64,000 nt of DNA from Eledone cirrhosa (GCA_964016885.1 OZ024740.1:310186001-310250000); one strand, 5' to 3'. Counted from the stretch's first letter, positions 10,556-63,536 are shown. The notes: generated by a model from the letters alone, not told the origin. Made by a program: numbers and translations.

Positions 10556-11065
10556 AAATGGAAAAGAATGAAACGAAATTTCATTTCTCACTCTTAGTAC
10601 GGCTGATATCTAAATATAAGTATGTATACGTACATACATATATGTGTACAGACGTACAATAGTATGTATATATATATACATACATGCACACATATATATA
10701 TATACATATGGGTTTACCGAACATTTATTATAATGTTCGGTTTGTTTGTACAGCCCGAATTACGCCGTACAGTGCTCGGCAACCATCATTGCCCTTTTGT
10801 TCAACACTGACACAGGAACGATGTACTAGTTTCAAGCTTATTAGCTATCGTCAGCATCGTATACCTTTCTGTCAGATGATTGAACGTTTGAAAGTATATA
10901 CTTTCCTTGTGCATATTAACGGCTGAGCAGCCTAATTTGCATACCGTATGTGTGCATGTATGTATATCGTTTGTGTGCATGTATATGTGCATGTATGTAT
11001 ATATATACATACTACTGTACGTCTGTACACATATATGTATGTACGTATACATACTTATATTTATA
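10556..11065 (-). mobile_element. HHR-bearing fold-back element between microsatellites
   Basis: Inverted arms of ~85 bp (10611-10695 / ~10978-11062) enclose a spacer holding a minus-strand HHR. Confidence 0.6.
10818..10860 (-). ncRNA. Minimal type-I hammerhead ribozyme, canonical core
   Basis: Minus strand reads ACGATG-CTGACGA-tAGCT aata AGCTt-GAAA-CTAG-TA-CATCGT: 6-bp stem I, stem II, palindromic stem III (ACTAGT), GUA cleavage triplet. Confidence 0.85.
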
Positions 11066-13404
11066 TATGTATATATGTGGGTGGTTGTGATCTATATACG
11101 CTAGTAATAGACACACACACACACACACACACACATATATATATATATATATACACTGACATATATATATAAACAACACCACCACCAGCTCTCACTCTTC
11201 CATTCTCCTACTCTGTCTCCTCTCCTCTCTCTATGTCACTCTTTCAATCTACTCTCTCACAACCACTATCTCTTTCTCTTTATCCTTCTCGCTCTCTCTC
11301 TCTCTCTCTCTCTCTCTCTCTCTCTCTCTCTCTCGCTCTCTCTCTCTCTCTCTATGTTTATGAAGGTACCCCCATATCCCTGGAACTTGTGATTCGATTC
11401 ACGCGATAATTGTTTTAATACATTTGTATTCCCATTTCACGGTCAACTTCCTTTCAAAGTATTTTCCCATTATGCGCCCTTTTGGCAAGCAAGCAAACAA
11501 GCAATCACAGACTTTAAGTAATATATAGATAGATATTGACCCATGAAAGCCTATAGCATTAAAAAGTAATATATATTCGTGTATAGCTGCCTGTATCATG
11601 AGGTTTTTGTACTTCATTGCATTCAAAATAATAAATAAATACACAAAAGGATTTCTGGCATAGTTGCTCTAATATGATACCTTGTTGGAGGAAGATCAAT
11701 GTGTATACTGGAGGATGTGTGTGTGTCAACAATGCGTAATATGCTCCTACAATACAAACAAGGCAAGTAAGCTATAATTGTTACATGAAAGGGATTAGAT
11801 ATAAATTCGTCTTAATGGATTTTATGAGAAAGATAGAAATCTCGACAGATAGTGAATGAATATGCATGAAAAATGTGTACTTTTTAAGCACATTTCAAAA
11901 TGTTTTCTAACTGTGGTTGAAGGAGGCAAAACTGATACTGATTATAGTGATCCCAGATCGAAGGAAGATGATGCTCAAATTGAGGAGACGTAAACTAAAA
12001 AAGTGTAGGTACGTAAACAATTCCAGCCAAGGTACGATAGCATAGTATTAGCATTCAGATGATTTCTAAAACAAACAGGAAAATTGTAAATTCTTAATGA
12101 GGTAGGAGCTAGGGATCATGAATGGTATTCCAGGATTGCCGCGCTATTGCACAAACAACATATTGATGGGGACAGACAATAGGTGGTAGACTTTAATATA
12201 TATATGTATGGGCTTGCTGATGATTTGTTCCGATTGAAACAGTTCTATTCCTGTAGAAGCCATCTCACTCTCTCTCTCTCTCTCTCTATATATATATATA
12301 TATATATATATATATATATATATATATATATATGTGTGTGTGTGTGTGTGTGTGTACGTGAGTGTGTGCATGTATGTATTCGATCAATGACAATCAAGTT
12401 ATATTTAGTTAGCTTTCGTTTACAAATTCTAGTTGAGAGCTTTGGATTTTGAGGCTGCGAGAAGTCTTTTGTTTCCTCATCCGAAAATAACCGCCAAAAG
12501 ATTTCAGCTGGCTGAATTCTTCTTTTGAGTAAGGTCACATGACTACAGACTGAATTACTGCTACAATGCTACAATCAGCGTGAAAGTCTGTGGTAAGTTG
12601 AAGTTGTTTTTAATAAAGGACGAAACCTGCAGACGAAGGAACTCCAGTTAGAGCGTGGAAGTACAGATGTAAATGTATTACTTGTGCATTACATAGCATG
12701 TTAAATGACTTCCAGGGGTTCAAGAAAACTATCCGAGATTTTATTAATTATATCAATTTTAATCAATCAGAGATGGTCCAGGTATGAAAACCATTTTTGT
12801 ATATATCGTTATTTTGTTGTGTGTATAGTTTGTGCCTTCGGTCGGTTATCTTTGTGTCACATTTTATGACTACGGTGTTTAACTCTGGACTTAATATTTG
12901 TTTTTAACTTTCGATCAATTGAGTGCTCTGTGATTGCCTCAAAATAAATTGAATTGAACATGCTGTAGTGCAGCTAAAGTTCGATTTACAAAAATTATAT
13001 ATATATGTATATATGTACACAAACACACACACACACACACACACACACACATATATATATATATATATATATATATATATATATATATATATTGCACATG
13101 GTAAGGTGCATATACATAGACGTTACGCTGTTACCACTCGAGGGAAAGCCGGTTCAAGCGATTCCGAAGCACTTCACGTCAGTAGTATATCCCAACTAAA
13201 GACTGGTGATTATGAGTGACGGAATGTTCATTTATTAAATAAAAGTAGTTCAGCTGGCTTACTTCACCGCAATTACTTTATTGTATGATCTATATTACTG
13301 TTACTTGGCATGTGACTTCATCAGATTATCATACGATCATAGTTCTTAATACATGACCAGCGACATTTCCGCATAATTGTATAACTGCACATATAATGGT
13401 ATGA

Positions 13405-13455
13405 GCTACTGATGAAGTCACATGTATAATCATGTAACGGAAATATATATTTTGC
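13405..13455 (+). ncRNA. Degenerate minimal HHR, with a decayed inverted partner at ~13278-13330
   Basis: gcta-CTGATGA-aGTcACATG tataat CATGTaAC g-GAAA-TATATA-TT-ttgc. A 16-bp inverted repeat CATGTGACTTCATCAG / CTGATGAAGTCACATG links the two copies. Confidence 0.5.
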
Positions 13456-15512
13456 AATCAAGTAATTAAGTACAGCTTTGTTTATATCGTGAATTGACCA
13501 GTAGTCCGAATTTCGAATACGATATATAAAGTACCCATGTTTTTGAAAGTGTGTGAGGGGTGTATATATTATTGACGATTTCGAAGAGGTATGATAAACA
13601 TTTGAAACGCACATAATCTGCGACACTGAGACTCACAGAGGCGATGTCAAAGGATTGTGATATCACGATAGATGTCGTCCTGAGAAGGACCCGTCCAACC
13701 CATGCATGCGTGGAAAAGTGGGTGTTAAAACGATGATGATGCTGATGCTGCTGCTATTTCTGTCATCTATTGAAGACATCATGTGATCGTACCATTTTTA
13801 GTTTTTCTTGGATATTTAGAATATGTATCGCTCTCATATATATTGTTAATTTTGATTAAAATATTGTGATATTTGACACACCTTTTGCAATAATATATCT
13901 CCATATATTGAATTGTGTACTCATCTGAAAATGCTGGATTGGCAAAATACATCACAACTCATTTCCGTTCTCGGTGACTTGATTTGCTATGCATTATTTA
14001 TTTTCCCTTTAAATCCAGCTTCATGCCATTTGTATAATACTGATATCCTTTTGTAGGAAGATAAATTGAATATCGGTTAAATGAAAATGTGTTGCTAAAC
14101 AGATATTGAAGAAGTTTGTTTGCACACATAAATGCATCTACAGGAATATATTTTGTGTGTCTAATAAGATGAAATTCCTATGAACCTTTATATATATTGG
14201 ATACGTAGAAAATATACCAATGTTGATATGTACAACATCCTTGGAGATGTGATGAGAAAGATACCATGTATTAGAAATGTGAGAAGTACGATTTATGTGT
14301 CAGTTATACTGTTTTTCTTTTTTTTTTTTAGATTCTGAATTATTATACCATTTATCACAATACATACCATTTGCTCAGCATTGGAATCTTTATGGATTTA
14401 TTTTGAAATAGAGACGTTCGAAAAAACTAATGCAAATTACAAATGGTTTACCGCTAAGTTTTTGCAAAGAACAGACCTGTTTATCTTGTATTAAAACTCA
14501 GTAGTGTTCAAAACGTTTGTGACGGACATCGAGGGAAACGAGTATGCGACATAGATTTAGATCATGTTTAACTAATATTTTACGGGAGTATTCTCTTCGT
14601 TAGAGGGTTTAACAGATGTTTAGCTTTGTATGTGTATGGAGTTTAACAAATTGTGAAACATTTGTTCGTCTGATGCATGTCTGAATGTCTTCATTGGTGT
14701 GTGCATATGGATATGGATATATTTACAGTTATATATCCATGAAAATACAATACTTCAAAAAGTCGTTTAAATTTTGGCCTTTTAATAGGAGTCTTACGTT
14801 CTGGATAGAAAGGTAGAAATTAAATATCTTCATACATTTATGTTGGTATTTATATGCATTATCAAATGTAACATGAATTGTTTCAGTCAGAAATATGAAC
14901 AATTGGAGTAGGTGATATTCTAACAGTTTACACTCACATTAAGTGGAGTTTCCGTTATTTAATTGCGAAGATAATTTCAAATGACTAACTTTTCCACTCA
15001 CTGCGTTAAAATGTGGCAAACTCTAATTCATATATACAATGTAGGTAAATACTTGTGTGTGTATGGGGATGCGTGTATGTCTGTGATGCTGTATATGTGT
15101 ACGTGTGTGAGGTAATATAAAGTATGTGTGTATTTGTGTAAGGTTGCATGTGTGTAAGTGTGTGAGGTAATATATATTTAAAGCAAACGAGATATGCGAT
15201 TTCTTTAACGAGGAATTGTTTGAAAAGAAGATACCAAAGACAAAAAAGACGAACGCCCTATCATTAGCAACGTTTATTTAAAATATATCAACAACTTTTA
15301 CAAAATATTGAAGACATAATATTTTAAACGTCTAAAACCTCACAACCATATGTATTCAAAACAGAAACAAACACAGAAGCACAGATAAACACATACAGAC
15401 ATACAAACTCACACACACATACACAAGCACGCACACATACACACATACACTCACACAAACACACACACACACACAGAATACACAAACATATATATATATA
15501 TATATATATATA

Positions 15513-62215: not shown

Positions 62216-62326
62216 AAATCCTGCTGTTTTTATTGAATGTGGATTTGAAAACAAAAATATAAGCCTCACTTTCATATTTTTATATTTTTGATATCAAATC
62301 AACATTCAATAAAAACACCAGGATTT

Positions 62327-62386
62327 TTTCAATCTGACGACTGAAAGCAAATTTGTTTGCTTTCAAGAAACCACTGGTAAATGAAA
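62327..62386 (+). ncRNA. Type-I hammerhead ribozyme (right arm of family G)
   Basis: TTTCAaT-CTGACGA-cTGAAAGCAAA tttg TTTGCTTTCAa-GAAA-CCAcTGG-TA-AaTGAAA: 10-bp stem II, GUA triplet. Confidence 0.8.
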
Positions 62387-63536
62387 TAATTATCTTATGT
62401 TGTTTATTACATAACTAAAAAAAAATATTTATATATATATATCCAGTGTTAACCTAATATAAACCTTCCATATACTGTACCGATTGTGTTGTTATTTTTG
62501 TTTACCTTTTACATATATATATATATATATATATATATATATATATATAAATATATATATATATATATATATATATATATATATATATATATATATATAT
62601 ATATATATATATATATATAGCGAGAGAGAGAGAGAGAGAGAGAGAGAGAGAGAGAGAGAGAGAGAGAGAGAGTGAGAGAGAGAGAATGGAAAACGAAGAA
62701 TCAGTAATGCATCGGAACTGTTACAAATTCGAGGTGCGAACTATGTGTGGATCTACCTGACTCTAGTTTCGCAGGTTCCTCGGACACATCTATTGATTTC
62801 GGATCATATCCTCTTTCTGAGGTTTTCTCGCCCTACAAGCCTATATCGACCACCTTCATCCGCTTTGCGCGTCCTTGGGTTGGTCCCTGGTTAGTGACGT
62901 CATCATTATTCTGACCACTTGTATCAGCCCGGTGACTGTCAGCGCGTGGGCTGTCACTCGCCCACTGCCCCGAGTGTCTTTGGATCTGGGATTGTATTTG
63001 GAATTTTAAAATATGTTCTGGACGCTGTCCAGCACTCAGCCCTTTATTATAGTTAATATATATATATATATATATATATATATATATATATATATATATA
63101 TATATATATATATATATATATATATATATATACATATATATATATATATATATATATATATATATATATATATATATATATATATATATATAAGCAAAGT
63201 GATATTTTATTTGTTGCATATTCAACAAATGTATTTATAACAGGTTCGAAGCACTCTACAGTTTTTTCTGGAGTATAATAACCATATATATATATATTAT
63301 ATATATATATATATATATATATATATATATATATATATATATATATATATATATATATATATATATATATATATAATATGTATATATATTGTTATTATAC
63401 TGATATAGGGGTTGCCTCCCTTGCCGATCCCCACGTGGGGTCAGCAATAGTCAGTCCTTGTATTAACATTGAACTAAAACCTGTTGAGAAAGCGGCTTCC
63501 TTGTTCAATCATCTTACCAGAAGCCTAACATTATTT

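Follow-up and report, generated by a model that had tools for sequence, protein, structure and literature searches.

Short repeats in a 64-kb stretch of the Eledone cirrhosa genome as probable truncated insertions of hammerhead-bearing Penelope-like elements

We analysed a stretch of 64,000 nt from the genome of Eledone cirrhosa (GCA_964016885.1, OZ024740.1:310186001-310250000; assembly size 3.0 Gb), hereafter the window. Judged by sequence, its short repeats are probably 5′-truncated, often mirror-image insertions of many families of Penelope-like elements (PLEs), most of them from the Hydra clade, which carry hammerhead ribozymes (HHRs), together with three non-coding tandem units; a dimeric protein combining reverse transcriptase (RT) and endonuclease (EN) would prime both DNA strands on one sense RNA. 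A first-pass annotation had regarded these repeats as non-coding passengers of two Naiad-like PLEs, at 33.5k and 41.2k of the window. Our data suggest instead that eight of the 14 "non-coding" families are plain 3′ ends of coding elements, seven of Hydra type and one Neptune-like, and that a ninth probably is as well. Non-coding tandem units would account for only three families (430, 591 and about 660 bp), and two further families show neither a coding link nor a tandem arrangement.

Family letters A to G were assigned here by position; the first-pass annotation gave no coordinates for its own letters, which may therefore not correspond to ours. The genome sample consisted of 99 evenly spaced 10-kb blocks (989,600 bases, about 990 kb) from chromosome-scale contigs only.

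Two coding elements of the Hydra clade

The window holds two 5′-truncated coding elements, PLE-1 and PLE-2, with the following parts:

33582..35781, minus strand: PLE-1 long arm, 5′-truncated frame of RT and C-terminal GIY-YIG, frameshifts near 35266 and 35003
33717/33716: intron-less junction in the 3′ untranslated region (UTR) of this long arm, which has an HHR with a CAGAAGA core at 33614 and is cut off at 33582
35775..36397, plus strand: PLE-1 inverted arm, intron-less junction 36139/36140, HHR at 36242, long 3′ end
56380..56469, minus strand: PLE-1 tail-only fragment
41211..44509, plus strand: PLE-2, 5′-truncated RT-EN frame to 42705, then a 1.8-kb 3′ UTR
44341, plus strand: HHR in the end of the PLE-2 3′ UTR, which is "family D"
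47956..48777, plus strand: further copy of "D", a 5′-truncated 3′ UTR from the PLE-2 family, core at 48610

By their diagnostic motifs, both are Hydra-clade and not Naiad elements. Each has one open reading frame (ORF) in which RT is followed by a C-terminal GIY-YIG, and both contain DKT (in place of DKG), the CxCX5C linker, CxxC and CxH, with RWK in PLE-2 and RWR in PLE-1; CCHH is absent. The first Cys of the linker is altered in the window copy of PLE-1 and retained in genomic copies. This domain order and these motifs (DKT, RWK, CxCX5C, CxxC/CxH), the HHR near the 3′ end, insertion into (TA)n, a tail at one end and 5′-truncated, tandem or inverted copies are all described for the Hydra clade, which includes a (TA)n-targeting, HHR-bearing family of Octopus bimaculoides, Hydra-1_Obim (Craig et al. 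2021, PMC8557442). Naiads, which occur in octopus, share the (TA)n preference and inverted 5′ copies, but are described there as having an N-terminal EN (GIY-YIG), a CxC linker, DKA, CCHH and no canonical HHR, none of which fits PLE-1 or PLE-2 with their HHRs at 36242 and 44341; the Naiad-like label is thus not sustained. Since Pfam-A gave no RT or GIY-YIG match for either protein, the domains were read from motifs.

Open frames of 713 aa (PLE-1) and 719 aa (PLE-2) exist elsewhere in the genome at 91-96% identity. The two elements are 43% identical to each other, a homologue search returned 1212 relatives, and the first 590 kb of the sample contains about a dozen more coding stretches of Hydra type. 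The Hydra paper (PMC8557442) describes a small number of families, generally below 3 kb and with tails of 30-40 nt, whereas we count at least nine families in one window, tails of 55-120 nt and 3′ UTRs of 0.7-2 kb; an ORF of 2.1 kb is followed by a 3′ UTR of 1.0 kb in PLE-1 and 1.2-1.8 kb in PLE-2. Also unlike that account, open frames are numerous here, and there is an intron in the 3′ UTR that some copies lack. PLE-2 resembles Hydra-1_Obim by eye; the HHR of this single octopus family in the Hydra paper is unlike all those found here (PMC8557442).

Within the PLE-2 3′ UTR lies a (TTTTAT)n array (42741-43086), which is expanded at one other locus (L111) too and short in other copies. At 33469-33581 a 114-bp piece stands in place of the PLE-1 3′ end. 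One of its strands contains CTGATGA, the opposite strand GGAC-GAAA, and the piece was unmatched in all fetched loci.

Short families as 3′ ends of coding elements

Coding sequence lies upstream of B, C, D, E, 19.5k, 36.6k, 37.3k and 47.5k, several of these links resting on one to four loci. Family D is the terminal part of the PLE-2 3′ UTR; an unbroken stretch joins it to the stop codon, both in the window and at 8 of 11 further loci. Hydra coding sequence is linked to C (L240/L243, L268-L271; UTR of about 2 kb), E (L165, L166, L069), 36.6k (L254, L245), 19.5k (L052) and 37.3k (L199). Family 47.5k follows a C-terminal GIY-YIG with a Neptune-like CX4CxxC linker (CIDKKCITC), within the CX2-5CxxC pattern of Neptune, and is therefore predicted to be the 3′ end of a Neptune-like coding PLE; the thumb-EN part of this parent, the only part read, matches Pfam GIY-YIG with an E-value of 2.7e-4, just under the curated cut-off. 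Family F is probably the 3′ end of a Hydra family related to PLE-2.

Family B had been singled out as lacking an HHR. Its window copies are cut inside loop II of the ribozyme, and longer genomic copies continue upstream into a full HHR with a U3-A8 core; at L040 a Hydra frame lies upstream, with an inverted B at the 5′ end of this frame. This commonest family appears without half its ribozyme because most copies end inside loop II (junction cluster at reference positions 2628-2640; 16522-16535 in the window). Two copies elsewhere are 100% identical to the window's, which argues that B is very young. The full HHR and the upstream coding sequence ruled out B as a miniature inverted-repeat transposable element, a Helitron or a non-HHR ribozyme, and a fixed 5′ end of C was ruled out by its extension over about 2 kb into coding sequence.

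Coding-linked families supply 132 of the 151 family matches in the sample, the three non-coding units 16 and families with neither assignment 3; seeds of related families can double-count. Most genomic HHRs lie in truncated tails of (TA)n-targeting PLEs, and a minority in three short non-coding repeats. The short families of the window are as follows:

10556..11068, minus strand: 10.6k, 430-bp unit; main arm 10556-10946 with HHR C3 at 10854, inverted arm about 10975-11068
13093..13468: 13.4k fold-back, degenerate cores at 13324 (minus) and 13409 (plus)
15514..15690: B fold-back, 3′ end of a third Hydra family, cut inside HHR loop II
15783..17753: A, units of about 660 bp, partial tandems and inverted arms, cores at 16207 (minus) and 17412 (plus)
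16465..16662: B fold-back nested in A, short arm and long arm
18156..18552: C fold-back, predicted 3′ end of a coding Hydra element, UTR about 2 kb, degenerate cores at 18324 (minus) and 18449 (plus)
18651..18837: fold-back of a diverged B subfamily
19010..19355: 19.2k fold-back, HHR at 19234 (plus)
19407..19551, minus strand: 19.5k, predicted 3′ end of a coding Hydra family, HHR at 19511
33227..33430: B fold-back
36456..37054, minus strand: 36.6k, predicted 3′ end of a coding Hydra family, core at 36682
37108..37476, minus strand: 37.3k, predicted 3′ end of a coding Hydra family, HHR at 37299
44697..44957, minus strand: second copy of C, degenerate core
45084..46424, plus strand: G, 591-bp unit, U3-A8 HHRs at 45679 and 46270, inverted 5′ arm 45084-45197
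47471..47929: 47.5k fold-back, predicted 3′ end of a Neptune-like coding PLE, degenerate cores at 47636 (minus) and 47788 (plus)
51418..51478, minus strand: B fragment
58981..59732: E fold-back, predicted 3′ end of a coding Hydra element, cores at 59189 (minus) and 59646 (plus)
62059..62414: F fold-back, cores at 62208 (minus) and 62334 (plus)

Between 15500 and 19600 these insertions form a nested cluster, with B inside the TA tracts of A and with C, B, 19.2k and 19.5k adjacent to one another. Each insertion may leave (TA)n that serves as the next target.

Three non-coding tandem units

Families A, 10.6k and G run head-to-tail: the end of a previous unit precedes each unit start, and 10.6k units are spaced by 429-431 bp at L189, L210 and L178. 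Their longest stop-free frames span 50-86 aa, and tblastn gave no match for any of the three. Non-coding head-to-tail repeats with a type-I HHR in each unit are what defines a retrozyme, and the three families resemble the animal non-long-terminal-repeat retrozymes proposed to be non-autonomous PLE derivatives (Cervera and de la Pena 2020, PMC7229834); retrozyme units of 51-972 bp in a recent preprint (Li, Clavereau and Pollet 2026, 10.64898/2026.07.22.740005) span the 430-660 bp seen here. Unlike those retrozymes, A, 10.6k and G combine HHR stems of the minimal PLE type with dispersed short partial tandems, 5′ inversions and two 3′ termini in (TA)n. Mussel retrozymes lack the loop 1-loop 2 tertiary contact of canonical HHRs (PMC7229834). 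An enzyme of the PLE type probably makes the copies of the three units in trans.

Non-autonomy, which the first-pass annotation ascribed to all short families, would thus hold for these three and not for the coding-linked ones, eight or probably nine of 14, which are the plain 3′ ends of autonomous PLEs that this annotation itself named as counter-evidence. That every short family is a passenger of the window's two coding elements, and that these are Naiad-like, is most improbable. The three tandem units, the two families without a found coding link (13.4k and 19.2k) and the (TA)n targeting and 5′ inversions common to all would fit such a relationship. Eight families, though, continue upstream into RT/EN coding sequence, the EN is C-terminal with Hydra motifs, and the non-coding units show no similarity beyond simple repeats to PLE-1, PLE-2 or eight other coding-linked references. 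What they share with these PLEs is insertion architecture, not sequence, and a passenger relation to the elements at 33.5k and 41.2k in particular lacks support.

We also give very little credence to the idea that the non-coding units are satellite-like tandems spread by DNA recombination, with HHRs as inert relics. A 310-bp HHR array of at least 11 units in the sample (L056:280-3400) is in keeping with it, as is the finding that predicted retrozyme dimers of Xenopus were mostly inactive in vitro, with one of nine cleaved (10.64898/2026.07.22.740005). Against this stands the shape of the A and 10.6k copies, which are dispersed over many contigs at 88-97% identity, are 5′-truncated, have two fixed 3′ termini in (TA)n and form short-plus-long fold-backs. 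The 310-bp array itself, with an intact HHR in each unit, is a classic tandem retrozyme candidate absent from the window. At least 10 more HHR families lie outside the window (L203, L210, L201, L040 and others), some in tandems of 290-480 bp.

Number and structure of the hammerhead motifs

Motifs were sought with a type-I descriptor (core and three helices), and block-wise dinucleotide shuffles served as controls (100 for the window). The window holds 8 strict type-I HHRs, against a shuffled mean of 0.17 and maximum of 1, and a repeat of the comparison gave 8 versus 0.1. A relaxed descriptor, which allowed CAGANGA and U3-A8 cores and loosened the stems, passed 11 window motifs. Including degenerate ones, 24 HHR core 5′ halves are spread across the 14 families, and family B adds five 3′ halves. 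A strict regular expression without a bulge after A9 loses most motifs, because real motifs have that bulge.

In the genome sample, 96 HHR matches fell in 38 blocks, one tandem array supplying 11 of them, compared with 5, 3, 5 and 0 in four shuffles; with variant cores there were 123 matches versus 7-9. Extrapolation predicts about 2.8x10^5 HHRs genome-wide (block bootstrap 1.8-4.0x10^5). Both the excess over shuffled sequence and the very large genomic load proposed in the first-pass annotation are thereby borne out. The tertiary pair 3-8 covaries, with C3-G8 in 87 cases, U3-A8 in 15 and single changes in 1 and 3, versus 0-2, 3-5, 1-3 and 1-2 in the shuffles. Conserved core, three helices, abundance above chance and this covariation all mark the motifs as type-I HHRs, with catalysis as a prediction.

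The HHR is located near the 3′ end of each element, and, as the first-pass annotation noted, these are PLE-type retro-insertions with minimal type-I HHRs, among which a short self-complementary stem III is frequent. In many cases the AATAAA that this annotation noted just downstream overlaps stem I in its 3′ strand. The 3′ ends are reached only tens to a few hundred nt later, in (TA)n, so that a role as poly(A) signal is unsupported. Short or palindromic helix III, a covariant U3-A8 core, mostly single motifs in truncated PLEs and opposite-strand pairs 100-700 bp apart all recall the minimal HHRs described for metazoan PLEs (Cervera and de la Pena 2014, PMC4209133); a loop II of up to about 60 nt and the conserved CAGAAGA core of PLE-1 differ from these. 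Rfam returned no hammerhead family among the best 150 of 297 matches for the window and none among 26 matches for family B; the matches were dismissed as microsatellite or hairpin artefacts.

Reported counts, obtained with descriptors that differ from ours, are 2,000-9,000 minimal HHRs per genome (PMC4209133), more than 6,000 for a coral and, for axolotl, as many as 120,000 retrozymes (PMC7229834). Our literature search found no cephalopod HHR survey, and ribozymes are unmentioned in the accessible text of an Octopus vulgaris repeat paper (PMC13282606), whose repeat library may already contain these families.

Anatomy of the insertions

(TA)4 follows 332 of 467 3′ ends, compared with a background of 7.2%, which agrees with the microsatellite association claimed in the first-pass annotation; family 47.5k has the weakest association (7/22). 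The inverted duplicate, said to lie always at the 5′ end, does so with few exceptions: similar adjacent opposite-strand HHR pairs in the sample are 19 divergent and 0 convergent, and the junctions mapped over all fetched loci, with overlapping loci only roughly de-duplicated, comprise 156 head-to-head and 2 tail-to-tail. Our family D has no adjacent inverted copy in the window.

Two 3′ ends, about 55-120 nt apart, occur in nearly every family examined, coding or non-coding. Fold-backs numbered 122, of which 101 were classifiable and 21 were not, in a classification of termini that left out the 47.5k family, and 99 of the 101 consist of one long and one short arm (expected 50%, p about 2e-27). 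The unselected sample gave 21 of 23 such fold-backs, with solo ends at 31 long to 27 short; a terminus offset that misassigned the 37.3k family in the larger set was put right for this sample only. Short termini finish in 2-7 nt of alternating T/A, at least 3 nt long in 7 of 9 (background 10%). A tail at one end only has been described qualitatively (PMC8557442, PMC3846280), and our literature search found no count of the one-short-one-long rule.

A box picked by eye, GAG[CT][AG]C[TC], is present in 7 of 13 tails (B, C, D, 19.2k, 19.5k, 36.6k and 37.3k), about 33-67 nt before the long 3′ end, versus 0.19 in 2000 shuffles. A GAGCACT/GAGTGCT-like box also occurs in the PLE-1 leader (L095, L106), and inspection by eye of six published Hydra consensus sequences revealed the exact box in the tail or leader of Hydra-2_Amil, Hydra-1_Ajap and Hydra-2_Ajap, a near-match in two others and a box outside the tail in one. 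Published Hydra elements with the box come from coral and sea cucumber. It is a candidate promoter or protein-binding site. No exact copy of it was seen in the reference tail of A, 10.6k, PLE-1, E, F or 13.4k, so that it provides no evidence of a signal common to passengers.

Precise intron loss in PLE-1

The PLE-1 3′ UTR contains a GT-AG segment of about 750 nt that starts about 84 nt past the stop codon. Its donor was found in 19 of 19 other top protein matches and the acceptor junction in 18, and both window arms lack the segment precisely. The exact intron-less junction has 277 genome-wide matches (control 0). Since the 990-kb sample holds 4-5 unspliced and 0 spliced PLE-1 junctions, spliced copies should make up a few percent. 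They lie on three haplotypes that also bear intron-containing copies, and one subclade is purely intron-less. Such precise GT-AG loss on three haplotypes argues that sense RNA was needed as template at least once, and probably more often; a deletion via the 2-nt AG microhomology would yield an identical junction. The intron tree leaves out 11 of 32 spliced rows, in which the homology upstream was short; a first tree including 3′-end variation forced 4 changes and a cleaner one 2. An intron far past the stop codon can trigger nonsense-mediated decay, and with its donor about 84 nt after the stop, spliced PLE-1 RNA could be a target of this pathway. Our literature search, which covered few subscription papers, found no report of spliced PLE insertions.

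How mirror-image insertions may arise

The mirror-image shape makes it likely that both cut strands start copying on the same RNA. We propose the following sequence of events. A dimeric RT-GIY-YIG protein would cut both strands of a (TA)n tract. As (TA)n reads identically on both strands, each 3′-OH could pair with a UA-rich spot on the RNA; one sense transcript would serve both, with priming at its short start site for one strand and at its long start site for the other. Each cDNA would then grow towards the 5′ end of the RNA, often halting early and frequently in or near the HHR, and joining of the two at their 3′ ends would produce the head-to-head fold-back. Tandem read-through RNA would be trimmed by the HHR, either dimeric or aided by protein. 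The non-coding units would offer the same 3′ signals, used in trans. A biochemical counterpart is PAc, a Poseidon element from Anolis: in vitro, both strands are nicked and extended, two internal RNA starts delimit the tail, and a dimer was modelled (Frangieh et al. 2024, PMC11167929). Unlike in PAc, termini here coincide with UA-rich spots, and the two arms almost invariably end at different sites, as read from sequence.

The arm junctions bear on two rival mechanisms. Among 77 long-plus-short junctions from five families, 48 are symmetric (within 15 nt), the long arm reaches further in 11 and the short arm in 10, and in the remaining 8 a tail-only long arm abuts the short start site. Fold-backs might form by self-priming, that is, hairpin copying, possibly on antisense RNA; an antisense template has been proposed to account for kept introns (PMC3846280). 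The 48 symmetric junctions and the retention of the intron in most PLE-1 copies would be accommodated by this route, which we nevertheless regard as unlikely: in 18 of the 77 junctions the short arm has sequence missing from the long arm and the long arm has the tail, so neither could have been copied from the other; the two arms carry different 3′ ends in 99 of 101 fold-backs; and precise GT-AG loss on three haplotypes needs sense RNA.

Use of two RNAs in a dimeric particle, one per strand, with the short/long rule arising from asymmetry of the protein dimer, is a more serious though still doubtful candidate. Overlapping arms would then need no strand displacement, and the divergence of about 4% between arms of one insertion may reflect template differences and not age. 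Tail-only long arms abutting the short start (8/77), however, have the geometry of twin priming on one RNA, for which L1 twin priming is a precedent, and in 7 of 7 head-to-head pairs that span the intron site the intron is missing from each arm, even though only a small minority of copies lack it.

Several points weigh against priming of both strands on one sense RNA, or against the family assignments on which we build. The symmetric junctions (48/77) are also expected from self-priming, and many of these loci were obtained with symmetric window queries. Junction microhomology is not dominant: of the 156 junctions, compared with no null, only 71 overlap, 14 are blunt and 71 have extra bases. 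In the Poseidon system the start site has no homology to the cleaved DNA, the two strands shared their start sites, and mutating the HHR left insertion unaffected (PMC11167929). Descent of all intron-less copies from one event is not rejected by the tree test (p-AU 0.21), so the matching arms may only reflect an intron-less source element. The clade call stands on diagnostic motifs, not on tree placement among reference PLEs, the link of F to coding sequence comes from one interrupted locus (L073), and for 13.4k (14 loci) and 19.2k (12 loci) neither upstream coding sequence nor a tandem unit was found. Finally, none of the ten references, a small part of the genome's PLE families, is a partner element for A, 10.6k or G.

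Scale and significance

The repeats are real and very abundant, and their members are of known kinds; their value lies in scale and in the mechanistic record that they hold. The origin of inverted ends and of intron retention in PLEs is stated as open in PMC8557442 and PMC3846280. Eledone cirrhosa offers thousands of natural products of this process. Their near-absolute short-plus-long rule, the arms that do not overlap and the intron-less copies, which number in the hundreds, speak for twin priming on sense RNA. A large share of the short "unknown" repeats in such genomes would be PLE tails, and minimal HHRs can reach hundreds of thousands. More tentatively, and at somewhat less than even confidence, this may be the largest HHR load yet counted (about 3x10^5 intact cores), produced by a still-young Hydra radiation whose insertions record how PLEs integrate. 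Its dimeric enzyme would use a single sense RNA for twin priming at two fixed UA-rich sites, one on either side of a GAGCACT box shared by corals and molluscs alike; spliced RNA would occasionally be copied, counter to the antisense-template idea, and short ribozyme RNAs would parasitise the machinery.

Other features of the window

At least nine copies of a repeat of about 190 bp, resembling a short interspersed element, are present at 9931-10135, 20073-20257, 24379-24542, 24848-25146, 28359-28477, 30738-30941, 32721-32916, 57717-57913 and 63537-63721. It looks tRNA-derived by eye, and ARAGORN detected no tRNA in it. On the minus strand, 3342-3773 holds a 143-aa stop-free frame with a hydrophobic stretch and no Pfam match, a possible host exon. 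A dispersed repeat at 21665-21971, 51490-51893 and 60314-60761 (66-70% identity) probably consists of remnants of long interspersed elements.

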